Position numbers and translations under genes: made by a program. Shown piece after piece: positions 25,528 through 49,415 of a stretch of DNA of 64,000 bases (its first letter is position 1; each line of letters starts with the position of its first letter). This stretch comes from Acidimicrobiales bacterium (GTDB lineage: Bacteria > Actinomycetota > Acidimicrobiia > Acidimicrobiales > Poriferisodalaceae). The notes beneath the pieces are model-generated. The model was not told the origin of the DNA. It ran no database searches and saw nothing but the letters and a program-made list of their open reading frames with translations. Where the stretch lies: positions 91,461 to 155,460 of the forward strand of contig CAXXMY010000017.1 of assembly GCA_963663635.2 (NCBI GenBank). The letters run 5' to 3'.

Positions 25528-26362
25528 CTGCGGCGTCTCGCCAGGCGATCGTGGACTCGATGGCGTTGAACGTGAACACATGCAGGCCAATGATGTTGAG
25601 CCGGTCGGCATTTGCTGCGAGCTTGTTGAGCAATGTGCTGGGGTCATAGCCGCCGGGCCGCATCAGCCGCGCGACAGCTCCACGGTTCTTGCGCAGGTAC
25701 CTCAGGGAGGCACCGATACCGAGGCGGGTGCCGATCCGCACCAGACGCGCTGGTTCGACTGCGCCAGGGATTCCGAGATGGACCGGCAGCACGAAGCCGC
25801 TGCGGCGCTCAGCAGCCAGCCAGTCCACAATCGAGCGCCCGTGGAAGCACATCTGCGTGGATGCGTGCCCTTCGATGCCTGCACTTCGCAGGATCGACTG
25901 CTTCGTGCGGAGTGCGCCATGCAGCACATCGTCTGCGATGAGGGCATGGCCTTCGGGGTAGGCGGTAACACCGATATGGGTCAACGAGTGATCGACATCG
26001 ACGAGCGATTCAAGCAGCGCGACAGCGCCGTCGAAAGGACCGGCGGGCGAGGTCACGTCGCCTCCGACAAGAAAGATCTCATTCAGGCCCAACTCAGCGA
26101 CGCGCCCCAACAGCTCTTGCAGATGCCCCCGGCTGCGGACCATGCGGGCCGCGATGTGGGGGACCGGGCGATGCCCGAGTGTGCACAGCTGCGCTGTCAG
26201 GTCCAGCGTGTCCTCGAGCGTCTTGGACGCTGAAGCTGTCACGGACACCGGAGCGGCCGCAGGCAAGTGCTGAAGCTGATCAGCGAGGTTCTTGAGAGGG
26301 ATCAGCTCCCACTGGGCTTCACTGAGGAGCCGACGCAGCGCCTCCCTGGTGCTTGCGGACAT
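25511..26362 (-). CDS. metF: 5,10-methylenetetrahydrofolate reductase
   Basis: MTHFR blocks (WELIPLK, ..HIAAR, FLVGGD, TAYPEGH, QMCF, GIPG) are conserved. The start is uncertain (ATG 26362 or ATG 26461). Confidence 0.8.
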   Translation of the reverse strand: MSASTREALRRLLSEAQWELIPLKNLADQLQHLPAAAPVSVTASASKTLEDTLDLTAQLCTLGHRPVPHIAARMVRSRGHLQELLGRVAELGLNEIFLVGGDVTSPAGPFDGAVALLESLVDVDHSLTHIGVTAYPEGHALIADDVLHGALRTKQSILRSAGIEGHASTQMCFHGRSIVDWLAAERRSGFVLPVHLGIPGAVEPARLVRIGTRLGIGASLRYLRKNRGAVARLMRPGGYDPSTLLNKLAANADRLNIIGLHVFTFNAIESTIAWRDAAVTRLQ

Positions 26363-26476
26363 CGAGGATCCGCGCCGTGAGGGCCGCACGAGTACGGCCG
26401 CGGAAACGCTCTTGGCCGCGGCAGCGCGACAGGCGCGCAAGGGGGTGAACATCAAAGCCATCGGGGCGGTTCTCGC

Positions 26477-28186
26477 TCAGCTCAGGCCGACGATCTCACC
26501 GTCGGCGTCGAGGTCGATGTGGCGGGCGGCCGGGTCACGACCGAGGCCGGGCATGGTGCGCATGTCGCCGCAGATCGGGTAGACGAAGCCGGCACCTACC
26601 GACGCACGCACCTCGCGAACCGGCAGCGTCCAGCCCGTCGGCGCACCCTTCAGCGAGGCGTCGGACGAGATGGACAGGTGCGTCTTCGCGATGCACACGG
26701 GCAAGTTTCCGAAGCCGTTGCGTTCGTAGCTGTCGAGCTCACGGTTCGCCCGGGCGGTGTAGCTCACGTCGGCGGCGCCGTACACATTCGTCGCGACGGC
26801 GTGGATCTTGTCGCGCAGCGGAATGTCATCGGGATACAGCACAGCAAAGTCCGTCGGCTCCTCTGCGGCTTCGGCCACTGCGGTGGCGAGCTCGGCTGCG
26901 CCTGCTCCGCCGTCCGCAAAATGGGTGCATCGGGCCGAGCGGGCGCCGTACTCGGCTGCGATCTCGGCGATGGCGTCCAGATCGACCCCGTGATCGCCGG
27001 GAAATTCGTTGATGGCCACAACGGGTGACACGCCATGCATCCGCACGTTCTCGAGCTGCTTGCGCAGGTTGTCGCCGCCGGCGTGGACTTCGTCGGGATT
27101 GGCCTCGAGCAGGGCCGGGGGCAAGGGTCGTCCCGCGACGATTCGATGGTTGCCCGAATGCGCCTTGAGGCCCCGCACGGTTGCCACGATGACGGCCGCG
27201 TCTGGAGAGACGCCCGAATAGCGGCACTTGATGTTGAAGAAGCGCTCGGCGCCCATGTCGGCGCCGAATCCGGCCTCGGTCAGCAGGAAATCGGACGTGT
27301 GGATGCCGATGCGATCGGCCACGATCGAGGAGTTTCCCGTGGCGATGTTTCCGAAGGGCCCCGTGTGCACGAGCGCCGGCGTGCCTTCGAGGGTCTGCAT
27401 CAGGTTCGGCTTGATGGCCTCTCGCAGCAGCACTGCCATCGAGCCGGCAGCACCGATGTCCTCGGCGGTGACCGGTTCGCCCGAGGGGGTGTAGCCCAGC
27501 ACGATGCGGCCGAGGCGGGCGCGCAGATCCTCCATCGAGGTGCACAGCGCCAGGGTCGCCATCACTTCCGACGCAGCGGTGATATCGAAACCCGACTCGC
27601 GGGGGATGCCGTCGAGCCGGCCGCCCAGACCGATCGTGATATTGCGCAGCGCTCGGTCGTTGACGTCGAGCACTCGTCGCCAGGTGATGTTGTGGATGTC
27701 CAGGCTGGGTTCGCTGCCGTGATACAGGTGCGCATCCAGCATTGCTGCACAGAGGTTGTGCGCGGCGGTCACGGCGTGCATGTCGCCGGTGAGGTGCAGG
27801 TTGAACAGGTCCATCGGCACGACCTGGCTGTAACCGCCGCCGGCTGCGCCTCCCTTGATGCCGAACGTCGGACCCATCGACGGCTGGCGGATCGCGATGG
27901 TTGCGGTCCGGCCGATGTGGGCGAATGCCTGCCCCAGACCGACCGTGGTTGTCGTTTTTCCTTCGCCGAGCGGGGTCGGCGTGATGGCCGTCACAACCAC
28001 GTACCGGCCGCGCGGGCGATCAGCCATGGCCTCGATGGCTTCGAGACCGACCTTGGCCACACCGTGTCCGTACAGCTCCAAGAATTCCGACGGGATGCCC
28101 GCGTCATCGGCAATCTCGGTGAGCGGTCGAATTGTCGCCGCAGAGGCGATCTCCAGATCGCTCGGAAATCCACTTGCCGTGGTCAT
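26477..28186 (-). CDS. fhs: formate--tetrahydrofolate ligase
   Basis: SDLEIA N-terminus, P-loop TPLGEGKTTTTVGL, length about 570 aa. ATG 28186 is preceded by AAGGGG. Confidence 0.9.
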   Translation of the reverse strand: MTTASGFPSDLEIASAATIRPLTEIADDAGIPSEFLELYGHGVAKVGLEAIEAMADRPRGRYVVVTAITPTPLGEGKTTTTVGLGQAFAHIGRTATIAIRQPSMGPTFGIKGGAAGGGYSQVVPMDLFNLHLTGDMHAVTAAHNLCAAMLDAHLYHGSEPSLDIHNITWRRVLDVNDRALRNITIGLGGRLDGIPRESGFDITAASEVMATLALCTSMEDLRARLGRIVLGYTPSGEPVTAEDIGAAGSMAVLLREAIKPNLMQTLEGTPALVHTGPFGNIATGNSSIVADRIGIHTSDFLLTEAGFGADMGAERFFNIKCRYSGVSPDAAVIVATVRGLKAHSGNHRIVAGRPLPPALLEANPDEVHAGGDNLRKQLENVRMHGVSPVVAINEFPGDHGVDLDAIAEIAAEYGARSARCTHFADGGAGAAELATAVAEAAEEPTDFAVLYPDDIPLRDKIHAVATNVYGAADVSYTARANRELDSYERNGFGNLPVCIAKTHLSISSDASLKGAPTGWTLPVREVRASVGAGFVYPICGDMRTMPGLGRDPAARHIDLDADGEIVGLS

Positions 28187-28292
28187 ACTGCGCACCCCTT
28201 GTGCCACGCTTATCGATACGGCCGTGCAGCCGGATCGTGCCCCTTCAGCGTCGATTTGATCGTGTTCCAGCGTTACCGTAACGCGCTAGTCT

Positions 28293-28315
28293 GTTCCGCT
28301 GAGCGGAACTGTTCC
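28293..28315. promoter_or_regulatory. palindromic operator candidate in the fhs / dehydrogenase divergent promoter (site 1 of 3)
   Basis: gttccgctgagcggaac (a perfect 7-3-7 inverted repeat) overlaps ggaactgttcc (5-1-5). The reverse complement matches 33738-33760 at 21 of 23 positions. Confidence 0.6.
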
Positions 28316-28420
28316 ATCATACAGAACACGGGTGGCCTGATCGGTCACCTTTGCATGCCGTACTCTGGCGGCGCCCAGAGGCGAATTTCGGTTGCATGCT
28401 TGTCTTTGGAGGGGGTTGGC

Positions 28421-30943
28421 ATGAGCGAGTTTCCTGAAAGGGCCGACTGTGTCGTCATCGGTGCCGGAATCGTTGGCAACTGCTTGGTCGGGCATCTCAG
28501 CGACCTGGGCTGGACTGACATCGTTCTGCTCGACAAGGGACCGCTGCCCAACCCGGGCGGCTCCACTGGCCATGCCTCGAACTTCATCTTCCCGATCGAT
28601 CACTCCAAGGAGATCGTCGATCTCACCGTCGAGAGCCAGCGGCAGTACGAGGCGCTCGGCCTGCAGAACACCTGCGGGGGGCTCGAGGTGGCCCGTTCGC
28701 CTGAACGTCTCGAGGAGTTCCGCCGGCGCATGACCTCGGCCAAGTGCTGGGGGATCGAGTCAGAGCTGCTCACCGTCGACGAGGTCGTCGAGATGGTGCC
28801 CTTCATCGACGCCAGCGTCATTCTGGGCGGGTTCTATACGCCCAGCGTGTCCGCAGTGGACTCCCTGGAAACGGGCACGCAAATGCGCAAGCGGGCCCAG
28901 GACGCTGGGCACCTGTCGGTGCATGCGAATACCGAGGTGCTCGACATCGAGACCGCCCCGGGGCCCAACGGGCCGCGGGTTGCCGCCGTGGTGACCGACA
29001 AGGGGCGCATCGAGTGCTCCACGGTGGCCATCGCCTGCGGCGTGTGGAGCTCCAAGCTCGCGGAGATGGCGGGGGCGACGATCCCGTTGACGCCCGCCGT
29101 GCACCAGATGGTCGATGTCGGCCCCTTCGACGTCCTGGTGGAGACCAATCAAGAGCTGGCCTATCCGATCGTTCGGGACATGGACACGTTCTGCTATGAG
29201 CGTCAATCCGCCGGTTCCATGGAAGTGGGCAGCTACGCCCACCGGCCGATCCTGCACCGCGTCACCGACATACCGTCCAACGAGGAAGCGGCGCTGAGCC
29301 CCACGGAGCTGCCGTTCACGCCCGACGACTTCGACGAACAGCTCGAACAGGCCATCGAGCTGATGGAGTTCCTGGGCGACGGCGAGATCAAATACGCCAT
29401 TAACGGTCTGCTGTCGCTCACGCCCGACGCAGCCCCGGTGCTCGGACCCACTGTCGAGGTGGAGAACCTGTGGTCAGTAGCTGCGGTCTGGGTCAAGGAG
29501 GGCCCGGGCGTCGGCCGCCTGGTCGCCGAGTGGATGACCTACGGCTACCCGCGACTGACCGACCCGCACGGCTCAGATGTGACGAGGTTCTACCGCCAGG
29601 ACCGCAACGTTCACCACATCGAAGCCCGGGCCGACGAGCACTTCAACAAGACGTACGGCATCGTGCACCCCCGTGAGCAATGGGCGAGCCGACGCAATGT
29701 GACGTGCGGTCCCGCCAAGGCTCGCACCGACGACCTCGGCGCGTTCTATTTCGAGGCTGGCGGCTGGGAACGGCCGCACTGGTATGAGTCCAACGCAGAT
29801 CTCGTGGAGCGCTACGGGATCTCGGGACGCACGCACGAATGGGACGCCCGCTGGTGGAGCCCTATCACCGAGGCCGAACACCTGCACCTGCGTGAGCACT
29901 GCGGGCTGGTGGACGTCTCGCCGTTTCAGGTCTTCGAGGTGTCCGGCCCCGGGGTCGTGCCCTACATCGAGCACATGGTGGTCAACAAGTGCGACCTGCC
30001 CGTCGGCCGTTCGATCTACACGCCCGTGCTCACGCCCGATGGCGGATTTCGATCCGACCTCACCATCGTCCGGCTCGCGCAGGACCGGTTCCGCATCGCC
30101 ACCGGTGCGTTCGACGGCGGCCGTGACGAATACTGGTTCCGGCACAACCTGCCCGGCGACGGCGTGGCGTTCGAGAACCGCACCGAGGCGCTCGCTACCT
30201 ATGGCGTGTGGGGACCCAACGCAGTCGCGTTGCTGCAAACCCTGACCGAGACGGATCTCTCACAGGAAGCGTTCGGTTACGGGCAGGTCCGCAACGTCCT
30301 GCTGTCGGGCATCCCGACGCAGATGCTGCGCATCTCCTACGTCGGCGACGCCGGATTCGAGATCTATTGCGCCACCAGCGCCGGCCTGGCGCTGTGGGAC
30401 GCAATCTCGCAGGCCGGGCGAGACTTCGAGCTGCGCCCCGTCGGCGCCGGGGTGTATGGCACCACCGGCCGTCTCGAGAAGGGCTACCGGCTCATGGGCG
30501 CCGAGCTCGAGAGCGAGTACAACCCGGTAGAGGCCGGCCTCGCACGGCCCAAGGTGAAGGCGGCCGACTTCATCGGCAAGGATGCCTACCTTGCCGCACG
30601 CGAGGCAGATCAAGCCGCGGTGCTCGTCATGCTGGCGTTCGAGAGCCTGCAGTGCGCCGATGGCTACGACCGGTTCCCGATGGGAGCAGGCAACGAGCCG
30701 GTGCTGACGCCCGCCGGAGATCGGATCACCGATTCCCACGGGCGAGTCAGCAAGTTGACCACGGCGGGCAACGCTCCGTCCGTTGGCGCCTATCTCGCGA
30801 TGGCCTACCTGCCCACTGAGCTGGCCACGGTCGGCACCGAGCTCGCAGTGATGTACCAGAACGAGCTCTATCCGGTGACAGTTGGCGCCACGGGAGCGAA
30901 CCTGGCACTGTTCGATCCGGCTGACAGCCGGATAAAGGCCTGA
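28421..30943 (+). CDS. dimethylglycine/sarcosine dehydrogenase-like FAD oxidoreductase fused to a GcvT-type folate-binding aminomethyltransferase domain
   Basis: N-terminal VVIGAGIVGN FAD motif. C-terminal GcvT-like region (SPFQVFEVSGP, YTPVLTPDGG, GDAGFEIY). 840 aa. ATG 28421 is preceded by GGAGGGGG. The first 462 codons of the 1302-aa ORF in the track are antisense to fhs. Confidence 0.85.
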   Translation: MSEFPERADCVVIGAGIVGNCLVGHLSDLGWTDIVLLDKGPLPNPGGSTGHASNFIFPIDHSKEIVDLTVESQRQYEALGLQNTCGGLEVARSPERLEEFRRRMTSAKCWGIESELLTVDEVVEMVPFIDASVILGGFYTPSVSAVDSLETGTQMRKRAQDAGHLSVHANTEVLDIETAPGPNGPRVAAVVTDKGRIECSTVAIACGVWSSKLAEMAGATIPLTPAVHQMVDVGPFDVLVETNQELAYPIVRDMDTFCYERQSAGSMEVGSYAHRPILHRVTDIPSNEEAALSPTELPFTPDDFDEQLEQAIELMEFLGDGEIKYAINGLLSLTPDAAPVLGPTVEVENLWSVAAVWVKEGPGVGRLVAEWMTYGYPRLTDPHGSDVTRFYRQDRNVHHIEARADEHFNKTYGIVHPREQWASRRNVTCGPAKARTDDLGAFYFEAGGWERPHWYESNADLVERYGISGRTHEWDARWWSPITEAEHLHLREHCGLVDVSPFQVFEVSGPGVVPYIEHMVVNKCDLPVGRSIYTPVLTPDGGFRSDLTIVRLAQDRFRIATGAFDGGRDEYWFRHNLPGDGVAFENRTEALATYGVWGPNAVALLQTLTETDLSQEAFGYGQVRNVLLSGIPTQMLRISYVGDAGFEIYCATSAGLALWDAISQAGRDFELRPVGAGVYGTTGRLEKGYRLMGAELESEYNPVEAGLARPKVKAADFIGKDAYLAAREADQAAVLVMLAFESLQCADGYDRFPMGAGNEPVLTPAGDRITDSHGRVSKLTTAGNAPSVGAYLAMAYLPTELATVGTELAVMYQNELYPVTVGATGANLALFDPADSRIKA

Positions 30944-30957
30944 ACGGGTAGGCGAGC

Positions 30958-31761
30958 ATGCGCATCCTGGTCTGCGTGAAGCGAGTCCCGTCGCCGGGAT
31001 CGCGCATCAACGTGACCGACGACGGCCAGCAGGTGGACTCCGCGCATCTCGGCTTCACCACAAGCCCGCACGAGGAATGCGCTGTCGAGGAAGCGGTGCA
31101 GCTCATCGAGCGTGTCACCGCCAGCGACAGCGACAACAACGAAGACCACGCAGTTGTGGTGCTCACGCTCGGGCCCGAAGCCGCTGGCGAGCAGCTGCGC
31201 TACGCGGCGAGCGTCGGGGCCACGGGCTTCGCGCTCGTCGAAGCGGAAGGCGGCCTGGATTGGGACCCCCAACGGACCGCGACTGCGATCACTGGCGCGG
31301 TGCGGTCACTGGAAGCCGATGAAGGCCCGTTCGACCTCATCCTGTTCGGCAATGAATCGGCCGACGGCGGCAACTTCCAGGTCGGCATCAGGGTGGCGCA
31401 TGCGCTCGGTCGTCCCATCGTGAACGGCATCAAGGGCATCGACTCGCGGCCCGACGGCGGCTTTGTCGCACGGCGAGAGACCGACGCCGGCTACGAGGTC
31501 TACGAGCTCGATGCTCCGTGCGCCCTCGGCGTCAAGGAAGGCATCAACCTGCCCCGGTATCCGACGATGAAGGGGCGGCTGGCATCGCGCAAAGCCCACA
31601 TCGCGACGCTCGACAGCGCAAGCGCGGCTGCTGCGGGCGGACAGACGCGTGTGCGGCTCCACCGACCGCCCGAACGCGCGAGCACGACCGTTGTGCTGGG
31701 CGACAGCGCAGCAGCGGCCCCCGCCGTTGTGGACCTGCTTGATGAGCTCGGTGTGCTGTGA
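30958..31761 (+). CDS. etfB: electron transfer flavoprotein subunit beta
   Basis: MRILVCVKRVP start and overall EtfB pattern. Confidence 0.9.
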   Translation: MRILVCVKRVPSPGSRINVTDDGQQVDSAHLGFTTSPHEECAVEEAVQLIERVTASDSDNNEDHAVVVLTLGPEAAGEQLRYAASVGATGFALVEAEGGLDWDPQRTATAITGAVRSLEADEGPFDLILFGNESADGGNFQVGIRVAHALGRPIVNGIKGIDSRPDGGFVARRETDAGYEVYELDAPCALGVKEGINLPRYPTMKGRLASRKAHIATLDSASAAAAGGQTRVRLHRPPERASTTVVLGDSAAAAPAVVDLLDELGVL

Positions 31762-32759
31762 CCGGTGTTGCCGTCCTCGTGGACCACGACCGAGGGACCC
31801 TCTCGGGAGGCGCCCTCGAAGCACTCACCGCTGCACGCTCGCTCGCGCAAGCGCTCGAAACGACCGTCGAAGCGGTGGTGCTCGGCGATACGGCGCTGTT
31901 CGAATCGCATGGGGCCGATCTTGTGGCCGCATGCGGCGCATACGGCGCTTCCGTCGTGCACCGTGGCATCGGTGACCTGCTCGCTGACTACGGACCCGAT
32001 GCCTGGGGCGCAGCGCTCAGTTCGTTCGTGGAGGCCGAGCGGCCTGTCGCGGTGACCTCGGTGGGCACCGACCGCGGCGCAGAGGCCATGGCACAGCTGG
32101 CCGCCCGGGCCGACCTGCCGCTGGTCGCCAACTGCGTGACGGTCACGCCCGCTGCGCAGAACTGGCAGATCACGCGCGTCCAATGGGGCGGTTCGCTGCT
32201 CGAGGACGTGACCCTCGAGGCGTCATTGCCGCTGGTGACCTTTGCGCACCATTCGGTCGAGGCTGAACCTGCCGACAATGCTGACGAGCCCACAGTGCGC
32301 GACTTCGAACCCGAACTGGGCCCCGACGCGGAACGAACGCTGGTACGCGACCGGGTGACGCTGACCGAAGGCGTGACGCTGGCGACCGCCTCAGTGGTGG
32401 TCTCGGGGGGGCGCGGCGTGGGATCAGCCGACGGTTTCGCCGCACTTGAGGAACTGGCTGAGCTGCTCGGCGGTCGCGTCGGGTGTTCGCGCGCGGTCAC
32501 CAACAACGGGTGGCGCAATCACGCCGATCAGGTGGGACAGACCGGCACCCGCATCGCGCCCGAGATCTACATAGCGTGCGGCATCTCGGGTGCCATCCAG
32601 CACTGGGTCGGCGCCATGGGCTCGAAGAACATCCTGGCGATCAACATCGATCCCGAAGCCAACATGGTCACCAAGGCCGGGTACGCGGTGATCGCGGACC
32701 TGCACAAGGTTGTGCCAGCCGTCTGCGACGAAATCAGGCGCCGCCGCGACCGCCCGTGA
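31758..32759 (+). CDS. etfA: electron transfer flavoprotein subunit alpha
   Basis: C-terminal FAD-binding block YIACGISGAIQHWVGAMGSKNILAINIDPEA. Its GTG start overlaps the etfB stop (GTGA). Confidence 0.9.
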   Translation: MTGVAVLVDHDRGTLSGGALEALTAARSLAQALETTVEAVVLGDTALFESHGADLVAACGAYGASVVHRGIGDLLADYGPDAWGAALSSFVEAERPVAVTSVGTDRGAEAMAQLAARADLPLVANCVTVTPAAQNWQITRVQWGGSLLEDVTLEASLPLVTFAHHSVEAEPADNADEPTVRDFEPELGPDAERTLVRDRVTLTEGVTLATASVVVSGGRGVGSADGFAALEELAELLGGRVGCSRAVTNNGWRNHADQVGQTGTRIAPEIYIACGISGAIQHWVGAMGSKNILAINIDPEANMVTKAGYAVIADLHKVVPAVCDEIRRRRDRP

Positions 32760-32906: not shown

Positions 32907-33662
32907 CTACGGGCGGGCCAGTGCCCGACCCGAGAGGTGGTTGGAGAGGTTTGCTGCGGCTTCGATGAGTGCGAGGCCGATGTCGTGGGTTCGGTTCGGG
33001 TCGGGAAACCGGTAGGCCGGGCCGTGGACGTGCAGTGCGGCGACGACCTCGCCGTCAGCGTCAAACACGGGTGCCGCCACCGAGTTGATACCAGGTGCGA
33101 ACTCCTCGTACACCCAGACGTAACCGGCGCTGCGAACCTGAGTCAGCCGTACTGCGAGCGCAGCGGCATCGGTCACGCTGTTCGCAGTGGTGGCCTCCAG
33201 CCCGCCGGCTACGTACTGCGCAATGACGTCTTCGGGCAAATGGGCCAGCCACACCAGTCCGGAGGGCACGAGGTGCATCGGGCAGTACTCGCCGATCCAC
33301 GAGCGCACCTGCACTTCGGATTCGTGCTCTACCTGGTCGAGGTAGTACACGGTCCGGTCCACACGAACGCTGACGCCTGCGGTCTCGGCCATCTGGTTGA
33401 CAAGGCCATGCAGGTGGGGTCGTGCCGCAACCACAAGGCCTCGCTCATCGCCAGAGGCACCCACGATGTCGATGAGTCCCGGGCCGATCCGGTAATCCCC
33501 GCCCGCGTCGTCCTGGGCCACCGCGCCGACGGCTTCCAATGACGTCAGCAGCCGCGCGACGGTGCTCTTCGGCAGGCCGACCTGATCGGCTACGTCGGTG
33601 ACGCCCTGCGGACCGACAGCCAATGCCCGCAGAACCGCAAATGCGCGACAAATCGACTGCAC
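32907..33662 (-). CDS. IclR family transcriptional regulator
   Basis: N-terminal wHTH (SICRAFAVLRAL....GVTDVADQVGLPKSTVARLLTSL) and a C-terminal IclR effector domain of about 250 aa in total length. Confidence 0.85.
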   Translation of the reverse strand: MQSICRAFAVLRALAVGPQGVTDVADQVGLPKSTVARLLTSLEAVGAVAQDDAGGDYRIGPGLIDIVGASGDERGLVVAARPHLHGLVNQMAETAGVSVRVDRTVYYLDQVEHESEVQVRSWIGEYCPMHLVPSGLVWLAHLPEDVIAQYVAGGLEATTANSVTDAAALAVRLTQVRSAGYVWVYEEFAPGINSVAAPVFDADGEVVAALHVHGPAYRFPDPNRTHDIGLALIEAAANLSNHLSGRALARP

Positions 33663-33866: not shown

Positions 33867-35855
33867 ATGCCACGCCGAACCACTCGGCGGCGAGACAGCC
33901 GCAACGAAGCGCTGCCTCGGCTGGAAACGCCACTCGTACGAGACGGCGGCGTGTTGCGTCAGGCGACTTGGGCTGATGCCCTCGATCAGGCTGCAACGGG
34001 CCTCGGGGCCGCCACCCAGCAGCACGGTGCAGGCGGCGTCGGCATGTTCTCGTGCTCGAAGAGCACCAACGAGATGAACTACGCAGCCCAGAAGTTCATG
34101 CGGACGGTGCTGCGCTCCAACAACATCGACTCGTGTAATCGCACCTGACACGCTCCGTCCGTCGTCGGTCTGGCGACAGTGTTCGGTCTCGGAGGCGGGA
34201 CGTGCTCCTACCAAGAGATCACCGAGACCGATCTGGTTCTGCTGTGGGGCTCAAATGCCCGCGAAGCACACCCGATCTTCTTTCACCACCTCATGCGGGG
34301 GCTCGACCGCGGCGCCGCGATGTTCGCGATCGACCCGCGCCGAACCTCGTCGGCGGAGTTCGCCGATGTCTGGCTCGGCATCGACGTCGGCAGCGACATC
34401 GCACTGGCGAACGCCGCGGGCCGAGAGATCATCAGCGCTGGTCTGCACAATCGCGAGTTCATCGATCGGGCCACCACCGGCTTTGACGCGTATGCCGCGT
34501 CGGTAGAGGAATACACGCTTGACGAAGGCGAGCGCCGCACGGGCGTCCCCGCCGACGTCATTGCCGAGATGGCACATGCCTATGCCACCGCGCCCACAGC
34601 GCAGATCCTGTGGACACTCGGCATCACCGAGCACCACACCGCCGTGGAGAACGTGCTGTCGCTGTGCAATCTGGCTCTGCTGACCGGCCACGTGGGCCGC
34701 CGCGGCTCGGGTTTGGTGCCGCTGCGAGGTCAGAACAACGTCCAAGGCGGTGGCGACATGGGCGCGCTGCCCGACCGACTGCCCGGATTCCAATCCCTGA
34801 CGGACGCCGATGTTCGGGCGAAGTTCGAGGCCAGCTGGGGCTGCGAGCTGAATCCGGTGCCCGGCAACCACCTCACCAAGATGTTCGAGGCCATGGAGGA
34901 CGGCGAGCTGCGGGCGCTCTACGTCATCGGAGAGAACCCCGCCGACTCCGAGGCCAACGTGGCCCACGCCCGCAAGCTGCTCGAAGGCCTCGACTTCCTC
35001 GTCGTGCAGGACATCTCCTTGACGCGCACCGCACGCATGGCCGACGTGGTACTGCCCGCCGCAGCCGGCTGGTCGTCATCTGAAGGCACCGTCACCTCGT
35101 CGGAGCGACGAGTGCAGCGGGTGCGTGCTGCGGTGCCGCCCCAAGGCGACGCCCGCGACGATGTGCAGATCATCGGCGATCTGGCTCGGCGGATGGGTGC
35201 TCCGTGGCCGGCCGCGTCGGCCGCAGAGCTGTGGGAAGAACTGCGCTCGCTGTCGCCGATGCACGGTGGCATGACCTGGGAGCGGTTGGAGTCCGAGGGC
35301 GGCCTGCAATGGCCGTGCCCTGATGAGGAGCACCCGGGCACCGAGTTCCTGCACGCGTGGCTCTGGGAGCCCGACCTTGCAGGGCACGAACCCGCGCCGT
35401 TCACGCTCAACGAAGATCGGCCTCCTGCTGAGTCTCTCAGCGAGGAGTTCCCGCTTCGCCTGACAACCGGCCGTGTGCTCGACTCCTACAACACCGGTGC
35501 ACAGTCCGCCGGCTATCCCTCACCGATCAGATCGGGCACTGCCATCGAGTTGAGCCGTGCTGATGCTGCGACCTACGGAATCGCGGACGGGGATTCGGTG
35601 CGAGTCACCTCTCCTCGGGGCTCGGTGGTCATGGAGGCATCCATCACTGCCAGCGTGCGCCCAGGACTCGTGTTCACGACGTTCCATTTCCCCGAGCTCG
35701 TGGACCTGAACGTGCTGACCAACGACGTGTGGGACCCACGCAGCGGCACGGCTGAATTCAAGGCGGCTGCGGTGCGCATCGAACCGCTGTCGAGCGCGGC
35801 CAGCCAACGAACTGGCGGCGGAACGAGTGCAGCAGCAGGTGGTGGCGGTGGCTGA
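33867..35855 (+). CDS. fdhA: formate dehydrogenase catalytic (molybdopterin) subunit, C-terminal portion of a canonical FdsA/FdhA, with in-frame TGA 34146-34148 read as selenocysteine
   Basis: ORFs 33813-34148 and 34179-35855 share one frame and are separated only by the TGA. The context NNIDSCNRT-U-HAPSVVGLATVFG aligns with E. coli FdhF NNVDCCARV-U-HGPSVAGL. The downstream molybdopterin-oxidoreductase blocks are intact. ATG 33867 is preceded by GGGAGGGA. Confidence 0.8.
34161..34177 (+). promoter_or_regulatory. SECIS-like hairpin 12 nt downstream of the UGA
   Basis: GUCG-U-C GGUCU(G) G-CGAC forms a stem with a bulged U and a GGUCU apical loop. This is the same architecture as the E. coli fdhF SECIS apex (GGU-U-GC AGGUCU GCACC). 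Confidence 0.6.
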
Positions 35856-37755
35856 CCTGCGTTTCTCCGACGCCGAGCCCACTGCGACAGAACGCCGAGC
35901 AGTGATGGAGGCGCTCGAGACTGCGACCGACAACGGGATGTCCGCACAGTATTCCCCGCAGCCCGCACCGGCGCCCGGTAAGCCCACAATGGCCCAGAGC
36001 GAGATTGCGAACGGGTCGGTGTCGCCTTCAGGTGAGATGCGATCTGGCGTCGCGGCCGTTGTGGTCGTGCACCCGCGTGTGGTGCGAGGCGGAACCCGGC
36101 GGCGCAAGCGGCTGCGGCACCTGCTGTTGCCGGCGCTGCACGCCTTGCAACGGGAGGCGGGGTGGATCTCCCCAGGCGGGCTGAACTTCGTGGGACGCCA
36201 GCTTGGAGTGCCCCCGGCCGAGGCCTATGGCGTCGCAACGTTCTACGACATGTTCGCCACAGAGCAGCCCACGCATGCTGAGAGTGTCTGTCACGTGTGC
36301 GTCGACCCGATCTGCGCGCTCGCCGGTGCGAGCGATCTAGCGGAGCAATTGCGCTCGCAAGGCCGCCAAGTCCATCTCGGGCCGTGCCTGGGCCAGTGTG
36401 AGCGTGCTCCCGCCACGTTCATCCAAGGCCGCGGCGAACCTGACCGGGTGCCTGCCGATGCCAATGAGTCGAATTCGCTCGTTGCAAGCGTGACAGCGGA
36501 CGCTCCCGGCGCCCCGTCTCTGCTGCGACGCATGCTCACCGACGATGTGGGCCGGCCGCCTTCTGCTGAGAGCTTCACCATGGACGCCTACCAGCTGCGC
36601 GGCGGGGGAGAGGCCCTCACGGCGGCGCTGCGAATGGGCCCCGACGACGTCATCTCTGCGGTCACCGCTGCTGGACTCTCGGGCCGCGGGGGTGCTGCGT
36701 TCCCCACCGGCATCAAATGGCGAGCGGTTGCAGACGGCAGCGGCCCGAAGCATGTCGTGGCCAACATCGACGAATCAGAGCCTGGCACGTTCAAGGATCG
36801 GCTGTTGTGCGAACGCGATCCGCTGGCCGTGATCGAGTCGATTGCGGTCGCAGGCTTGGTGGTGGGCGCAGAGCACGGATGGATCTACATCCGGGGCGAG
36901 TACCCGCTGGCCACCCAGCGCCTCCGAGAGGCCATCACCGCCGCACGTGTGCACGGCTGGCTTGGCGACGACGCCGCAGGCTCGGGCCAGCGCTTCGACA
37001 TCGAGCTGCGCAGAGGCGCCGGCGCCTATATCTGTGGCGAGGAAACGGCCCTGTTCAACTCACTCGAAGGATTCCGGGGCGAGCCTCGCAACAAGCCTCC
37101 GTTCCCGACCACGAACGGGCTGTTCGGTCGACCGACCGTGGTCAACAATCCCGAGACGCTGCTCAATGTGTCCGAGATTCTCAGAATCGGCCCCGATGGG
37201 TATCGCAGCGTGGGAACGCAAGGCTCGCCGGGCGCGAAGCTGTTCTGCCTGTCGGGGCATATCGGCCGCCCAGGGCTGTACGAGGCGCCGTTCGGCATGC
37301 GGCTCGGCGATCTGCTGGAACTGGCCCACGGAGTGCAGGGCACGCTGCGAGCGGTGCTGCTCGGCGGTGCGGCCGGGAGCTTCGTGGGGCCAGAGGCGCT
37401 GGAGCTGCCGCTGTCGCTCGAGGACACCCGCGCTGCGGGAACGACGCTGGGCTCGGGACCGGTGATGGTGTTCAATGACAGTGCCGACATGAGCGCTGTG
37501 GTGCAGCGGTTGGCGCAGTTCTTTCGGGACGAGTCGTGCGGACAGTGCGTGCCGTGCCGTGTCGGAACGGTGCGCCAGCACGAGATCGTCACCCGCATTC
37601 GCGACAGGGGCGCCGCATCGGGGCGTGAACTCGAATTGATCTCCGACATCGCAGCCGCGATGGGAGACGCCTCGATATGCGGCCTCGGCCACACCGCAGC
37701 GTCCGCCGTGGTCTCGGCGCTGCGGCTCGGCTTGCTGGAGGATGCAACGACATGA
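35827..37755 (+). CDS. fused NuoE-like (2Fe-2S) and NuoF-like (FMN/NAD/4Fe-4S) diaphorase subunit of NAD-dependent formate dehydrogenase (FdsG-FdsB fusion)
   Basis: NuoE block: YGVATFYDMF ... CVDPIC ... GPCLGQCERAP. NuoF blocks: GLSGRGGAAFPTGIKW, ESEPGTFKDR, CGQCVPCRVG. Candidate GTG starts lie at 35827-35848 and overlap the upstream stop. Confidence 0.85.
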   Translation: MQQQVVAVADLRFSDAEPTATERRAVMEALETATDNGMSAQYSPQPAPAPGKPTMAQSEIANGSVSPSGEMRSGVAAVVVVHPRVVRGGTRRRKRLRHLLLPALHALQREAGWISPGGLNFVGRQLGVPPAEAYGVATFYDMFATEQPTHAESVCHVCVDPICALAGASDLAEQLRSQGRQVHLGPCLGQCERAPATFIQGRGEPDRVPADANESNSLVASVTADAPGAPSLLRRMLTDDVGRPPSAESFTMDAYQLRGGGEALTAALRMGPDDVISAVTAAGLSGRGGAAFPTGIKWRAVADGSGPKHVVANIDESEPGTFKDRLLCERDPLAVIESIAVAGLVVGAEHGWIYIRGEYPLATQRLREAITAARVHGWLGDDAAGSGQRFDIELRRGAGAYICGEETALFNSLEGFRGEPRNKPPFPTTNGLFGRPTVVNNPETLLNVSEILRIGPDGYRSVGTQGSPGAKLFCLSGHIGRPGLYEAPFGMRLGDLLELAHGVQGTLRAVLLGGAAGSFVGPEALELPLSLEDTRAAGTTLGSGPVMVFNDSADMSAVVQRLAQFFRDESCGQCVPCRVGTVRQHEIVTRIRDRGAASGRELELISDIAAAMGDASICGLGHTAASAVVSALRLGLLEDATT

Positions 37756-37765
37756 GCACACCCCG

Positions 37766-38710
37766 ATGAGCGAAGCAATGGCCGCGACGCCAGCCACCCA
37801 GACACCGGCCTTGGGGATTCCAGCATCAGAGTCCCCGGCCTCGGAAACCCGGGCAGTCACCTTGACCGTGGACGGTGCAGAAGTCTCGGTGCCCGCTGGG
37901 CAGACCGTGCTCGCAGCGTGCAACGCGGCGGGTGTTTCGACTCCCACGATCTGCTGGGCGCCCAATCTCACACCGGTCAACGTCTGCCGAGTGTGCGTGG
38001 TGGAGCTCGAAGGCTCCCGGACCCTGGTGCCCGCCTGCTCTCGGCCCGCAGAAGACGGCATGGCGATCAGCACGGACTCCGAACGGGTGCGCCACAGCCG
38101 CCGGATGGTGCTGGAGTTCCTCGGTTCTGCCAACGATCTCAGCCAGGCCACCGAGATCAACGACTGGTCTGCGGAGTACGGCGCCGACCCGGATCGCTAC
38201 GACATGGCTGAGCGGGTCGACGAGCCCGTGCGCGTTCAGGACGAGCTGTACATCCGGGATTACGACCGCTGCGTCCTTTGCTACAAGTGCGTCGAGGCCT
38301 GCGGTGACGACGCCCAGCACACGTTCGCGATCGCAGTGGCGGGACGCGGCTTCGGCGCCCGCATCCGCACCGAGTACGACATCGAACTTCCAGAATCGGC
38401 GTGCGTGTATTGCGGGAATTGTGTCGCTGTTTGTCCGACCGGGGCCTTGCAGTTCCGAACCGAATTCGATCTTCGAGCCGTGGGGGAGTGGCGCCCCGAT
38501 TCCCAGACCGTCACCCGCACCGTCTGCTCGTACTGCGGCGTCGGCTGCAATCTCGACCTTCACGTCCAGGACGAACGCATCGTGACGGTCACCTCGCCCG
38601 CTGACCACTCGGTTACGAGCGGCCATCTGTGCATCAAGGGGCGATTCGGATGGCAGTACGTCCACGCCCCCGCCTTCGAGCCCCCAGCGCCTGACGCAGC
38701 GGGGCAATAG
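37766..38710 (+). CDS. formate dehydrogenase alpha subunit, N-terminal Fe-S portion (2Fe-2S, 4Fe-4S ferredoxin motifs, Mo-bisPGD 4Fe-4S cap) encoded as a separate gene
   Basis: CRVCVVE, CVLCYKCVEAC, CVYCGNCVAVCPTGAL, CSYCGVGCNL and GHLCIKGRFG motifs. It ends right after GRFGWQYVH, which is where the gene at 33867 picks up (RLETPLVR). Confidence 0.8.
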   Translation: MSEAMAATPATQTPALGIPASESPASETRAVTLTVDGAEVSVPAGQTVLAACNAAGVSTPTICWAPNLTPVNVCRVCVVELEGSRTLVPACSRPAEDGMAISTDSERVRHSRRMVLEFLGSANDLSQATEINDWSAEYGADPDRYDMAERVDEPVRVQDELYIRDYDRCVLCYKCVEACGDDAQHTFAIAVAGRGFGARIRTEYDIELPESACVYCGNCVAVCPTGALQFRTEFDLRAVGEWRPDSQTVTRTVCSYCGVGCNLDLHVQDERIVTVTSPADHSVTSGHLCIKGRFGWQYVHAPAFEPPAPDAAGQ

Positions 38711-38731: not shown

Positions 38732-40099
38732 ATGTCGGCGACGGAGCCGACTTCCGAACGGGTCTCCCGTCGGGAGCGAGCGTTGGGGCGCGCCCGCCAG
38801 ACGGCGTCGGAGGCCATGCCCCGCATCGAGCGCGTGTCAGCGTCGGCATCGCCCGAACCCCTCGTCGGCGGACCGGCGCTGGAATCGCGAGCTGCCCGCA
38901 GCACGGCGCTGTTCATCGGCATTGCACTGCTGATGGCCGGCAACGGCCTGCAGAACACCTTGCTGGGGGTCCGCGCCGAGTCCGAAGGCTTCGGTTCGAC
39001 GGTTTCGGGCCTGGTCATGGCGATGAACTTCGTGGGCTTCTTGGTCGGCGCGGCACTGGCGCCTCGGTTCCTGCGCCAAGTTGGCCACGTCCGGGTGTTC
39101 GCAGCATTGGCCTCCGCAGGCAGCAGCGTGGTGCTGGTGCAGGCGGTGTTCATCCACCCAATCGTGTGGGGTCTGGGTCGGTTCAGCTGGGGCGTGTGCT
39201 TCGCGGGACTGATCGTCGTCGCCGAGACCTGGCTCAACGAGCTGGCCACCAATGAGAACCGGGGACGCGTCCTAGCTCGCTACATGGTGATCACGATGGG
39301 CGCCATCGCGACTGGCCAGCTGTTGGTGGCGACTGCGGACACCAATGGCTTCGTGCTGTTCGCCGTCGCCTCGGTGCTCGTATCGGCGGCGCTCGTGCCG
39401 ATGTCGCTGTCGGCATCGAGCAGCCCCGCTATCGTCGCACCCGAGCCTCTGGGACTGCGGACGCTGTTCCGCACCGCGCCCACTGGCGTGGTGGTGGTGT
39501 TTCTCGTCGGCGGGGCGCTCGGATCCATTTCCGCTATCGGTCCCGTGTATGCGTCGGCACGGGGGCTGTCACCTGTGCAGGTGGCGATGTTCGTCGCTGC
39601 CCCGATGATCGGCAGCCTGTTCGGTCAGATGCCTCTGGGACGTCTGTCAGACCGGATTCCTCGACGAGCCGTGATCGTGGTTGCGTCCGCGGCTGCCGGC
39701 ACGATGTGCCTGCTGATGCTCGCACTCGACGAGCGTGGCCTCGCCGGCATCGTGGTGATGGCGGTGATGGGTGCGTTTGCCTACCCCGTGTACTCGCTCG
39801 CGGTTGCCCAGACGAACGACTGGCTGCGGCACACGCAGCGAGCCAGTGCGAGCGCTCTGTTGGTGCGCATGAACGGCATCGGAGCTACCACGGGACCGAT
39901 TTGTGCGGCAATCGGCATGTCGGTGACGCTGAACGCCTTCTATTTCGTGATGGCAGCAGCGCACGTGCTGATCGTGCTGTTCGTCTTGGCCAGGGTTCTC
40001 TTGGTGGCCGGGCCGACCGTCGCAGATCAGGGTTCGTTCCATCCGATCCCTGCGCGGGCTTCTGCGAGCGTCGCGGCCCTGTTGCGGCGGCGGCGATGA
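38732..40099 (+). CDS. MFS transporter
   Basis: Multiple TM segments and MFS-like spacing. The start is uncertain. Confidence 0.7.
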   Translation: MSATEPTSERVSRRERALGRARQTASEAMPRIERVSASASPEPLVGGPALESRAARSTALFIGIALLMAGNGLQNTLLGVRAESEGFGSTVSGLVMAMNFVGFLVGAALAPRFLRQVGHVRVFAALASAGSSVVLVQAVFIHPIVWGLGRFSWGVCFAGLIVVAETWLNELATNENRGRVLARYMVITMGAIATGQLLVATADTNGFVLFAVASVLVSAALVPMSLSASSSPAIVAPEPLGLRTLFRTAPTGVVVVFLVGGALGSISAIGPVYASARGLSPVQVAMFVAAPMIGSLFGQMPLGRLSDRIPRRAVIVVASAAAGTMCLLMLALDERGLAGIVVMAVMGAFAYPVYSLAVAQTNDWLRHTQRASASALLVRMNGIGATTGPICAAIGMSVTLNAFYFVMAAAHVLIVLFVLARVLLVAGPTVADQGSFHPIPARASASVAALLRRRR

Positions 40100-40950: not shown

Positions 40951-40987
40951 ATGCCGTGGCGCTCAAACGCCCCTGTCGGGCGATGGG

Positions 40988-43040
40988 TCAGGGCTCTTCG
41001 TGTATGCGCACGGTGTAGCTGCCGTCTTGCTCGGCGAGCACGGCCACCCGGTAACCCAGCACGCTGAGCGAATCCCCCGTCTGAAGCAGCGGGTACCCCT
41101 CAATCGTGCGGTCCTCGTCGCCTGCAACCTTGAGCGGTAGCGAGTGCAGGCCTGAATCGACGGTGTACACGAGGACGCGAACGGCACCCACTGGTCCCGT
41201 TCGACGTTGCGTCGTGCCTCGACGACGATCACCCTGCGATTGTCGACCGACACCGCCGCCATGAGCGTGTCGTTGCCCTGCAGCGCCTCGGGGTCAATAT
41301 GGACCAAGGCATCGGGCTCTTCGATGCAGCTGTAGATCGACAGACCCATGATCCCGAAGTCGGACGCGACGAGCACCGTGCCGTCCTTGCGCTCGGGCCG
41401 TTCGCTGTGGCCATCGCCGTCCAGGTCGGCCAAGCCGAAGATGTGCAACAGCTCGAGTGCTGCGGCCCAGCCATTGGCGGTGATCTGGCGAGTCTCAGTG
41501 TGGTGCGTCACGTTCATGCGCATCGTGGGCACGGTCCGACCGCCGACGTCAATGTTGCCGGTCGCAGTGGCGATCGAGAATTGATCGCCCGGGAAGATCG
41601 TCATGACCGCGTCAATGTCGGAGAAATCGAGCTTGCCGGCGCTCGCGTCTTCGAGGTATTCCTCCATGTAGGGGACGCTCTCGGCGACTTCGGCATGGGT
41701 GCTGTGGCGAGCTTGCGTGTTGGGGAAATCGACGAAGAGCACCGCCAGCCGAACGGTGCCCACAGCAGAGGGCGACCACACGGGCGAGTAGCCCCAGGAG
41801 TTCGTCGCTGTGATCTGTGTGAGGCTCTTGCCCGAGGCATCCATCGTCATGAGGTACGTGCCGTGATCGCCGTGATCGCCCGGGCCGCTGTCGTCGAAGA
41901 ATCGCCTGAATGCGATCGTTGAGCCATCGGGTGACCAGGACACACCCCGGTCGTGAAAGGTGCCGTCGGTCAGTTGCTTCTTGCCGCTGCCATCGATGTT
42001 GATGACCCAAATGCTGGCACGCCAATCTCCATCGCCGTGCTGCTCGAATGCGTAGGCGATCTTGTTTCCGTCGGGTGACCACGCGAGGTAGAAAGCCGAT
42101 TGGTCTGGCAGCAGTTGAGTGGGCGGGTCGGTCGCCGCACCGCCGCATGAGCCGGCGGGAAGCGCTGCTGGCGCTGTGCCATCGTCGGTGTTGCCGCTGC
42201 TGTCGCCATCGCCTGTGTCGACCGTGGTGATCGGCCTGCCGAGATACTCGGACAGTGCCGCGTCGGAAACGGCTGCGTTGCCGCCGAACACCGTGAGCTC
42301 GATGCCGTCGCTGCCGACGGCAGTTCGTGCCGAATCCATGAACCCAGCCGTCTCGACGGGTATGGCCTGCGGATCGACCAGCACCAACGGTGCACACAGA
42401 CGTGCAAGCAACGGACCGGCACTGAACGAGTAGAACGGCACGCGCGCCCTGGCCAAGCCGATGTGCTTCCGGCCGAAGCAGTCGCCGGCCGAAGCGTCGC
42501 CGTAGCGACCTTGCACTAGCTCGGCAGCCTTGATGGCTGTGTCGTAACGGGTGGCTCCGGCCAGCCGGGTCACGGTCACGCCGAGCCCGGTGAGCGAGTC
42601 CTCGACCCCCGCGCTTAACGCAGCAGTGCCGCCCATCAGCACCACATGGTCCACAGATGCGCTGCTGAGATAGGAGACCACCTCGGGATGCAGTCGGTCT
42701 CGCGGGGTCAGCAGCACCGGATGGCTGCCGCGCGCTGAGAATGGTCCTGCTACGAGCGCGTCGGCGAAGACCTCTCCGCTGGCCACAACAGCAGTCCGGC
42801 CCAGCCCGCTCATGACGCCGACGTCGCCCGGGTCGCTGGACCTGCTGCGCAGGAATCGCCCGAGCTTGCGCGCAACAGCTGCACCGGTGGCGTACCGATC
42901 GGCCCCCGAAACCCGTTCGGACGAAATGCCGAGCGACGACAGTGCGTCGGTAACGCTGTCGCTGACGCGGGCATCTGGATCTGAATCAGGCGCCTGGGTG
43001 TCGATGACCAGCACGTTCGAGACCCCGGTGAGATTCCGCC
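40988..43040 (-). pseudogene. decayed surface-protein gene: starts mid-CWB2 repeat (no signal peptide), then PD40 blades, an M6 (InhA)-like metallopeptidase-like domain and a C-terminal beta-rich domain; frameshift near 41185-41200
   Basis: The coding-like sequence begins immediately after the mttB-like stop, within a repeat. The C-terminal part continues in ORF 40988-41191 in another frame. The HExxH position reads LELLH. Confidence 0.6.
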
Positions 43041-43051
43041 CAGTGTGAGAG

Positions 43052-44593
43052 CTACACGAGAGCGTCGGGTTCCTCGGCCTTGCGGCGGGCGATGTAGTCG
43101 CGGAGCTCCTCATCGATGGCGTCATCGATCGGCGGTGCTTCGTAGTCCGCCAGCATTCGCTTCCACACCACATTGGCGCGTTGGGCCGCGTCGAGCGAGC
43201 CGTCGTCGGACCAACGCTCGAAGCTGTTGTTGTCTGCGATGGAGGACTGATAGAAGGCCGACTCGAAGTTCTCCAACGTGTGCGCGTGTCCCAGGAAATG
43301 GTTGCCGTGAGGGTTCGTGAGGAACGCTTCGACGGCCTGCCCGTTGGGCGACATGTCGATGCCCTTGGCGTAGACCTCCATCATTCCGAGCTGGTCTGCG
43401 TCCATAATGAGCTTCTCGTAGCTCAGTGCCAGGCCACCCTCGAGCCATCCCGCTGCGTGCAGCACGAAGTTCACGCCCGCTGACATCGTGGGCAGCAGCG
43501 TGGATGCCGATTCGTACGCCGCCTGCGCATCGGGAGCTTTGGAGGACGTGAACTGCCCGCCGGAACGGAACGGCAGTCCGACGCGCCGCGCGAGCTCTGC
43601 CATGACGTAGATGGCCAAGCCCGCCTCGGGCGTGCCGAACGTCGGGGCTCCGGTCGCCATCGACATCGATGAGGCGAATGTTCCAAAGATCACCGGTGCG
43701 CCCGGGCGCACCAGCTGGCAGAACGCCATGCCCGACAGCGCCTCGGCCAGGCACTGTGCTGCCAGTGCAGCCACCGTGACCGGCGACATCGCCCCCGCCA
43801 AGATGAACGGCGAGATGACGCATGCCTGGTTGTGCCGTGCATAGACCTCAGCGGACTCCAGCATCGTCGCATCCCAGCGCAGCGGGGACGACGCATTGAT
43901 GAGGCTGGTGAGCACCGTGCGGTCGCCCAGATCACCACCGAACGCGATACGGCACAGCTCGACCGAATCCTCGGCTCGCTTCGCAGCGGTGACCGAGCCC
44001 ATGAGCGGCTTGTCGCTGTACCGCAGATGGGAATACACCATGTCGAGGTGGCGCTTGTTCACCGGCACATCCACCGGCTCGCACACGGTGCCGCCGCTGT
44101 GGTGCAGGTGGGGGAGCATCCACGTCAGCTTCACCACGTTCTCGAAGTCGGCCAGCGTGGCGTAGCGACGACCCTCGTCGAGGTCGGTCACGAACGGCGA
44201 TCCGTAGTTCGGCGCAAATACCGTCGCGTCGCCGCCGATCGGCACGGACCGCGCCGGGTTTCGGGCGTGCTGAATGTATGTGGAGGGCGCGTTTTCTTGG
44301 ACGATCTGCCGGCACATTCCGCGGGGAAATCGGACGAGCTCCCCATCGACATCGGCACCCGCGGCGCGCCACAGCTCCAACGCACGGGGGAATTCCTGAA
44401 AGGCGATGCCCACCTCGGACAGGATCGTCTCGGCATTCGCCTCGATCTGGGCCAGGCCGGCCTCGTCCAGCACACTGACCGGCGGCAGCCTGCGGGTCAG
44501 GTGCGTGTTGGTGACGGCGTCACTGGCCGCCCGCCTGGCCTGGCGGGCCGCCCTGCCGCCTTCTCGTCGTCGTGTCCGCTGGCTCATGTTCAC
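43052..44593 (-). CDS. MttB-superfamily methyltransferase, non-pyrrolysine type (quaternary amine:corrinoid methyltransferase candidate)
   Basis: Full-length uninterrupted ORF of 513 aa with MttB-family blocks (VLDEAGL..I...A..IL.E.G, GSPFV.D, GGTVCEP, SPLRWD, INFVLHAAGWLEGGL). No in-frame TAG. Start is GTG 44593 or ATG 44587. Confidence 0.8.
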   Translation of the reverse strand: MNMSQRTRRREGGRAARQARRAASDAVTNTHLTRRLPPVSVLDEAGLAQIEANAETILSEVGIAFQEFPRALELWRAAGADVDGELVRFPRGMCRQIVQENAPSTYIQHARNPARSVPIGGDATVFAPNYGSPFVTDLDEGRRYATLADFENVVKLTWMLPHLHHSGGTVCEPVDVPVNKRHLDMVYSHLRYSDKPLMGSVTAAKRAEDSVELCRIAFGGDLGDRTVLTSLINASSPLRWDATMLESAEVYARHNQACVISPFILAGAMSPVTVAALAAQCLAEALSGMAFCQLVRPGAPVIFGTFASSMSMATGAPTFGTPEAGLAIYVMAELARRVGLPFRSGGQFTSSKAPDAQAAYESASTLLPTMSAGVNFVLHAAGWLEGGLALSYEKLIMDADQLGMMEVYAKGIDMSPNGQAVEAFLTNPHGNHFLGHAHTLENFESAFYQSSIADNNSFERWSDDGSLDAAQRANVVWKRMLADYEAPPIDDAIDEELRDYIARRKAEEPDALV

Positions 44594-46804: not shown

Positions 46805-46817
46805 CGCCAGGGCCTCG

Positions 46818-48472: not shown

Positions 48473-48473
48473 C

Positions 48474-49226: not shown

Positions 49227-49278
49227 AGCGAAGTCAAGCCGATCTCGACCCAACCCGCCGTGAGAAACCAATTTTATG

Positions 49279-49300: not shown

Positions 49301-49415
49301 CGCACAACGGCACAAAGCGTTACGGTATCACGAACCTCGCTCAAACGGCGACATCCCGAAGCAGCCCATTGCGCCCACGCCGGACGGGCTCAGCGCTTGC
49401 GCAACGAGGCGATCT

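Follow-up and report, generated by a model that had tools for sequence, protein, structure and literature searches.

A split and permuted formate dehydrogenase with a predicted selenocysteine in the Acidimicrobiia

The locus described here raises the question of whether three adjacent genes, two of which each resemble only part of the alpha subunit of a formate dehydrogenase (FDH), encode a single working enzyme, and how such an enzyme might have come to be divided. The genes lie in a stretch of 64,000 nucleotides from contig CAXXMY010000017.1 (assembly GCA_963663635.2, positions 91,461–155,460), which we refer to as the window and number from its first base; its G+C content is 64-68% and its closest relatives are metagenome-assembled genomes (MAGs) of Candidatus Poriferisodalis (Actinomycetota, Acidimicrobiia). 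We propose that the trio very probably encodes one cytoplasmic, FdsGBA-like FDH that is selenocysteine (Sec)-dependent and NAD-linked, has a molybdenum or tungsten bis(pyranopterin guanine dinucleotide) (Mo/W-bisPGD) centre, and oxidises formate within a one-carbon (C1) island. The locus is real and conserved, and almost certainly functional.

The first gene (33867-35855, plus strand; 662 codons including one UGA at Sec94) encodes the Mo/W-bisPGD catalytic subunit, equivalent to the C-terminal part of FDH alpha (Pfam PF00384, Molybdopterin, and PF01568, Molydop_binding), and its ATG at 33867 has GGGAGG upstream. It is followed on the same strand by a gamma-beta (NuoE-NuoF) fusion of 642 residues (35827-37755) with matches to PF01257 (2Fe-2S_thioredx), PF01512 (Complex1_51K), PF10531 (SLBB) and PF10589 (NADH_4Fe-4S), NCBIfam scores of 405 bits to nuoF_fam and 62.6 bits to nuoE_fam, and legible cysteine motifs (CVDPIC...CLGQC and SCGQCVPC...ICGLG). 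The third gene (37742-38710, or from 37766; plus strand) encodes an Fe-S subunit resembling NuoG and the N-terminal part of FdsA, with PF13510 (Fer2_4), PF12838 (two 4Fe-4S motifs) and a terminal PF04879 (Molybdop_Fe4S4). The starts of the second and third genes are uncertain: the fusion may begin at GTG 35827, 35839, 35842 or 35848, which sets its overlap with the Mo gene at 8-29 nt, and the Fe-S gene at ATG 37742, 37766 or 37778, which gives a 14-nt overlap or a gap of 10 or 22 nt. No terminator-like sites were found between the three genes. The stop codon of the fusion lies in an ATGA overlap (37752-37755) whose ATG stands 10 nt after a GGAGG; this ATG does not share the frame of the Fe-S open reading frame (ORF) and starts a frame of only 5 codons. 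The Pfam content and coordinates agree with the preliminary description, in which the order was given as alpha C-terminus, gamma-beta fusion and alpha N-terminus; the genes are tightly packed on one strand.

The two parts of alpha fit together without loss or redundancy. In the NCBIfam model TIGR01591 (Fdh-alpha), profile positions 1-50 correspond to residues 260-309 of the Fe-S protein and positions 51-672 to residues 16-638 of the Mo protein, and alignment to Rhodobacter capsulatus FdsA (6tg9) pairs Fe-S residues 31-307 with FdsA 17-303 and Mo residues 18-645 with FdsA 308-938. Among 24 unsplit metagenomic relatives the interval from the end of the Fe-S match to the start of the Mo match is 0-9 residues, typically 1-5. 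The halves are therefore complementary, with no segment missing or duplicated, and each has gained a tail of about 14-17 residues. A precise break at the boundary of the Fe4S4 and Mo domains had been proposed beforehand, and all three comparisons place it there. The features of the TIGR01591 family are all present and are distributed over two chains: the ligands of the proximal [4Fe-4S] cluster, FS0 (CxxCxxxC...C-x-K), are not on the Mo polypeptide, and FS0 and its lysine are found on the Fe-S protein. The Mo subunit matches FDHs of the Protein Data Bank (PDB) with E values of 1e-142 to 1e-119, and contains a PLRGQNNVQG segment identical to that of FdhF of the hydrogen-dependent CO2 reductase (HDCR), the arginine of which we take to be the catalytic one.

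The Fe-S subunit carries the ligands for a [2Fe-2S] cluster (C71, C82, C85, C99), two ferredoxin-type [4Fe-4S] sites (C177/180/183/187 and C221/224/227/231), and, in its Molybdop_Fe4S4 domain, FS0 (C262/265/269/297) together with a conserved Lys299. All of these ligands and Lys299, which lies in the sequence C-I-K-G, are invariant in an alignment of 12 family members. In Escherichia coli FDH-H, Lys44, placed between the proximal pterin and FS0, is required for cluster occupancy and activity, and FS0 is 6.1 A from the cofactor (PMC12176258). Lys299 is the counterpart of this residue. Because FS0 and Lys299 are on one chain and the Mo/Sec site on another, the split runs through the second shell of the active site, and the enzyme would therefore be an obligate heteromer.

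A division of this kind could also mean that two enzymes are encoded, with NuoEF and the Fe-S protein forming a HoxEFU-like NADH diaphorase and the Mo protein acting as an independent FdhF-like enzyme with some other partner. Consistent with this, the highest-scoring matches of the Mo half are stand-alone enzymes of the FdhF type (HDCR FdhF, Methanospirillum hungatei Fdh and FdhH), and the Fe-S protein also resembles HoxU and HndD, both in NCBIfam and in its JGI names. Like these, it is a small Fe-S protein on its own chain, of the kind that links a NuoEF module electrically with a catalytic subunit encoded separately. Residue 255 is the last to match the HoxU model (238 positions, 143.7 bits), just ahead of the Molybdop_Fe4S4 domain (256-308); since FS0 extends beyond the HoxU-like part, the Fe-S protein is better regarded as a detached piece of a molybdoenzyme. 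Against two enzymes it also counts that the Mo protein itself lacks an FS0 domain, that the Fe-S protein ends in an FS0 domain that bears a pterin-contacting lysine and has no other known role, and that the three genes are not separated in any locus examined. We consider this alternative improbable.

The Mo gene was initially described with the correct domains and ends, and these stand; an in-frame TGA at 34146-34148 was overlooked, and the gene is intact only if this codon is read as Sec. The TGA occupies the catalytic Sec/Cys position (SCNRT-U-HAPSVVG; Sec94 of the Mo subunit), which we take to be that of Sec140 of E. coli FdhF and of a cysteine in FdsA, as the alignments to PDB FDHs agree, and a mechanical ORF list restarts after it, at 34179. 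One might accordingly suppose that the locus is decaying, its FDH gene rearranged and cut short by a premature stop at codon 94, as would also be suggested by the public gene calls, nearly all of which among those listed start after the TGA. A genome scan returned at least 566 matching stretches, of which the best 80 loci were examined. In all 69 loci that span the site, as well as in the window, the TGA is present at the same codon, and these genomes represent different species; it is likewise present in the further loci L084, L085, L090 and L091. Identity in tblastn alignments (66-88%) continues across the codon, and the catalytic and cluster residues are kept. Cysteine (TGC) is found at this site in the split-family member P0380 (locus L083) and in the unsplit relative P0232 (L088).

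The sequence that follows the TGA bears on the same question. A hairpin of the selenocysteine insertion sequence (SECIS) type, GUCGUC-GGUCU-GGCGAC, lies at 34161-34177 on the plus strand (+16 to +32 from the U of the UGA), and RNAalifold predicts it unaided from 66 distinct sequences, with 99.7% of cells paired. Its single variable pair joins two third-codon positions; it shows three changes from C:G to G:C and one to U:A, and is never broken; the G:C form is that of a second actinobacterial branch described below. Third-position entropy is 0-0.38 bits in the six four-fold-degenerate codons of the hairpin, as against 1.0-1.8 bits at flanking four-fold codons. The loop sequence GGUCUG stands at +22 to +27, counted from the UGA, exactly where the E. 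coli fdhF SECIS has it; a search with that SECIS sequence gave 100% identity to fdhF in 5,419 E. coli genomes. The Cys-type gene in L083 serves as a negative control, and its hairpin is degraded or lost. Since the TGA is conserved in every locus, the identity runs across it, and the hairpin is under RNA-level constraint, we read the TGA as a Sec codon; the comparative evidence that the Mo subunit is a selenoprotein is strong. Because order, frame and TGA are kept in 69 or more species we also reject an assembly artefact, and the idea of a pseudogene, to which we assign next to no probability, is effectively refuted.

These genes are poorly represented in public annotation. Of the 120 best listed calls for the Mo subunit (P0276-P0395), 118 are 526-577 residues long and start after the TGA, and so leave out the catalytic Sec together with some 93 residues at the N-terminus. 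P0375, from a 2.2-kb contig at the European Nucleotide Archive (ENA), is a full-length split-type Mo subunit with arginine at the catalytic site (SCNRTRHAPS), one base from TGA; this may be an error of sequencing or a miscall, or else a variant without activity. The Fe-S half is publicly named variously as '2Fe-2S cluster-binding protein', 'HndD' and 'YjgC'.

With the gene intact, the path of electrons through a single complex can be proposed. Sec94 would be inserted at UGA 34146-34148 with the aid of the fdhF-like hairpin, and formate would be oxidised at the Sec-ligated Mo/W centre of the 662-residue Mo subunit. Electrons would then cross the subunit interface to FS0 on the Fe-S subunit, next to Lys299. 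The next carriers would be the two ferredoxin-type [4Fe-4S] clusters, followed by the [2Fe-2S] cluster and finally by the [4Fe-4S] cluster and flavin mononucleotide (FMN) of the NuoE-NuoF fusion, where NAD+ would be reduced; the reaction may be reversible. As the NuoF part has no additional ferredoxin domain in Pfam, the simplest reading is a non-bifurcating enzyme linked plainly to NAD(H), and an electron-bifurcating enzyme of the Bfu/HydABC type is unlikely on the same grounds. A periplasmic FDH exported via the Tat (twin-arginine translocation) route was also considered. The N-terminus of the Mo protein is arginine-rich (MPRRTTRRRD), but no hydrophobic stretch follows it and the partner is a NuoEF module, and we reject this possibility.

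Several observations weigh against the proposal of a single, Sec-dependent FDH. The Mo half alone falls just below the TIGR01591 cut-off (629.8 bits against 666.25). The N5-type, His-ligated cluster of FdsA is absent from the Fe-S subunit, which has no Pfam match to PF10588. A search of the window with Rfam matched no RNA family, SECIS included, and the single-sequence fold after the UGA is not more stable than that of shuffled sequences (z = +0.75), although such folding is uninformative in DNA this rich in G+C and a comparative analysis was needed. No selA, selB, selD or tRNA-Sec gene turned up either in the window or, for 60 loci, up to 8 kb from the operon, nor was selC seen in the window or the flanks of the loci. 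No fdhD, fdsD or mobA adjoins the operon in the window, and fdhD and fdsD were not found among the window ORFs scanned. As to the missing cluster, an HxxxCxxCxxxxxC segment (at approximately residues 125-145 of the Fe-S protein) is deleted in the whole split family and is kept in FdsA, NuoG and most unsplit relatives, two of which (P0232 and P0227) also lack it; four of the five clusters of the NuoG-like set are thus intact, with the His-ligated [4Fe-4S] absent. In the structures of FdsA and complex I the N5-type cluster is a side branch off the path from FS0 to FMN, and its loss is therefore not expected to interrupt the electron chain.

In function the enzyme would be of the FdsGBA type. The NAD+-dependent FdsGBA(CD) enzymes of R. 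capsulatus and Cupriavidus necator (6tg9/6tga), among the closest known systems, have the same NuoE-like [2Fe-2S] component, NuoF-like FMN/[4Fe-4S] component, NuoG-like N-terminus, FS0 and Mo-bisPGD domain. The enzyme here differs in that alpha is divided, at the boundary of FS0 and the Mo domain, into two chains, gamma and beta form a single protein, the gene order is alpha C-terminus, gamma-beta and alpha N-terminus, Sec is predicted in place of Cys, the N5-type cluster is missing, and no fdsD or fdsC adjoins the operon in the window. The tungsten FDH1 of Methylorubrum extorquens (Fdh1AB; 7vw6/7e5z) is similar in the Fe-S part of alpha (E = 2e-42), but Fdh1A is one unsplit polypeptide with Cys. 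Fdh1B of this organism is itself a NuoE-NuoF fusion, and so offers a precedent for that of gamma and beta, and the order of the FDH1 genes is beta then alpha. E. coli FdhF (FDH-H) shares Sec at the homologous position followed by His, GGUCUG at +22 to +27, and the Mo domain (E = 1e-127), but has its own FS0 on the same chain, lacks a NuoEFG-type module, and feeds hydrogenase 3 rather than NAD+. An FDH-like bisPGD catalytic unit is also divided over two polypeptides in FwdB/FwdD (5t5i), and residues 46-213 of the 432-residue FwdB chain match the Mo subunit. The FwdB/FwdD cut lies before the C-terminal Molydop_binding domain and leaves FS0 with the metal domain, whereas the cut described here separates them. 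In the literature searched, which does not cover every journal, we found no account of this split or of a Sec-containing FDH in Acidimicrobiia, and no description was found of an actinomycetotal FDH of the complex-I type that combines an FS0 detached from the metal domain, a permuted gene order and Sec.

The arrangement is not peculiar to this genome. All 80 loci retrieved are from Acidimicrobiia-type MAGs, and every one with enough flanking sequence has the Mo gene, NuoEF fusion and Fe-S gene in this order on one strand, as do L081, L083-L085, L090 and L091; the permuted order is shared throughout a clade of class rank. Lengths of 275-392 residues are found among the 120 best database relatives of the Fe-S protein, and all have PF04879 and none a Molybdopterin domain. 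A second, deeper branch (named only as "Actinomycetota", with about 60% identity) has the same trio with fdhD upstream, a mobA-like NTP_transf_3 gene downstream, and the gene for formate–tetrahydrofolate ligase (FTHFS) adjoining; in L084 the trio is flanked by FTHFS and FolD. Two apparent distant split lineages, P0270 and P0168, were discarded as frameshift-ridden long-read assemblies of the same family. The locus at L081:1566-5820 (72% G+C) has the Mo-EF-FeS order, but its Mo protein has Gly in place of Sec/Cys (NNVDCGAGPGH) and is without Molydop_binding, and from its sequence this molybdo-domain looks catalytically dead, comparable to that of NuoG.

Outside the three genes the flanks vary, and the IclR, electron-transfer flavoprotein (ETF), major facilitator superfamily (MFS) and EamA neighbours seen in the window are common only to the Poriferisodalis group. 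The three FDH genes themselves are never separate in any locus examined and behave as one inherited unit. The earlier suggestion that they are probably expressed as a complex gains from this, as retention of the trio throughout argues for joint production.

How the permuted order arose is a question of history, not of function, and the origin considered next is compatible with the explanation that we favour. The preliminary description proposed tandem duplication of a gamma-beta-alpha operon followed by loss of the first gamma, beta and alpha N-terminus and of the last alpha C-terminus, a circular permutation at the scale of an operon. The ancestral order that it assumed is found in P0232 (Nitrospinota), the nearest unsplit relative with readable context (with identities of 36-37% over the Fe-S part and 43% over the Mo part), which has NuoE, NuoF and alpha in that order, and the breakpoint falls at the same residue on both sides, as the model predicts. 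Tandem alpha units do occur in an unrelated lineage: L082:41-4258 (P0124; 44% G+C) encodes a 1405-residue protein with two FDH-alpha-like units (Fe-S plus Mo, and Fe-S plus partial Mo), followed by genes for a cNMP-binding protein, NuoE and NuoF. No duplicated, half-deleted or unpermuted-split intermediate was found among the best 80 of at least 566 genome matches or in 8 further split-family loci (L081, L083-L087, L090 and L091), a survey in which no phylogeny was built, and no relics of a second operon copy rise above chance in the window. The gamma-beta fusion is a separate event that duplication does not explain, and fission of alpha with movement of one half, or insertion of the EF gene, would give the same end state; fission followed by relocation of one half accounts for the order equally well. 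We therefore regard duplication as a possible origin, though not a likely one.

A further suggestion, which we consider rather doubtful, is that the order arose by tandem duplication and has been kept because it is useful, limiting the waste when recoding fails and allowing separate maturation. With the Mo domain on its own first cistron the UGA lies 93 codons from the start, and failed recoding would waste only a small peptide, instead of releasing an Fe-S fragment of about 390 residues that could poison assembly with the NuoEF module. The Mo/Sec domain could likewise mature separately, with FdhD and MobA, and then dock onto a pre-assembled Fe-S/flavin module. If this is so, it would to our knowledge be the first bisPGD enzyme with the proximal FS0 and the metal site on different chains and an interface through the second shell.

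The role of the enzyme is suggested by its surroundings, as the operon sits in an island of genes for methyl-group and C1 oxidation (25511-32759 and 44687-49313). To one side are a gene resembling methylenetetrahydrofolate reductase (MTHFR), a DAO plus GCV_T fusion of 1302 residues that resembles dimethylglycine and sarcosine dehydrogenases (and whose first approximately 470 residues have no Pfam match), etfB and etfA; to the other is a corrinoid set made up of RACo, a methyltransferase that binds pterin and a protein that binds B12. Genes for FTHFS, FolD, GCV_T and a FocA-type channel occur in related loci. Formate would arise from C1 units carried on tetrahydrofolate as methylated amines are demethylated, and the enzyme is likely to oxidise it to CO2 with formation of NADH, a direction and acceptor that we infer.

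Upstream and divergent from the operon is an IclR-family regulator (32907-33662, minus strand) with NCBIfam BhcR/PcaR/IclR matches, a candidate regulator of either the FDH operon or the upstream ETF genes; 33 of the 80 loci have a homologue close to their FDH genes. An MFS transporter gene (38732-40099, plus strand; Pfam MFS_1) begins 21 nt 3' of the Fe-S gene and is possibly co-transcribed with the operon. It is present downstream in 15 of the 80 loci and is conserved within the Poriferisodalis group only. Elsewhere in the window there are three large proteins with CWB2 cell-wall-binding repeats (16677-19724; 21646-23469, minus strand; and 40963-43173, minus strand), two of which also have PD40/beta-propeller repeats, and these are probably surface proteins of the symbiont. 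A GmrSD_C-domain protein (9614-10672, minus strand), possibly a restriction or defence nuclease, and a 1310-residue SNF2/DUF3670 helicase (51034-54966, plus strand) are unrelated to the FDH operon.

The split Sec-FDH is an architectural variant of a well-known enzyme in which the selenocysteine has been overlooked. Metal-dependent FDHs are intensively studied as catalysts of CO2 reduction, and here there appears to be a natural modular form in which a Sec-ligated catalytic module without its own FS0 plugs into a separable Fe-S/flavin module. It offers a natural experiment on how much of domain I needs covalent attachment, and is a possible scaffold for engineering. Its apparent users are marine, presumably aerobic, Acidimicrobiia, and because the genes of this widespread clade are systematically truncated and misnamed, surveys of FDHs and of selenium use probably under-count it. 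For the organisms themselves, which are abundant symbionts of sponges, the locus would make formate oxidation the closing step in the catabolism of methyl groups.

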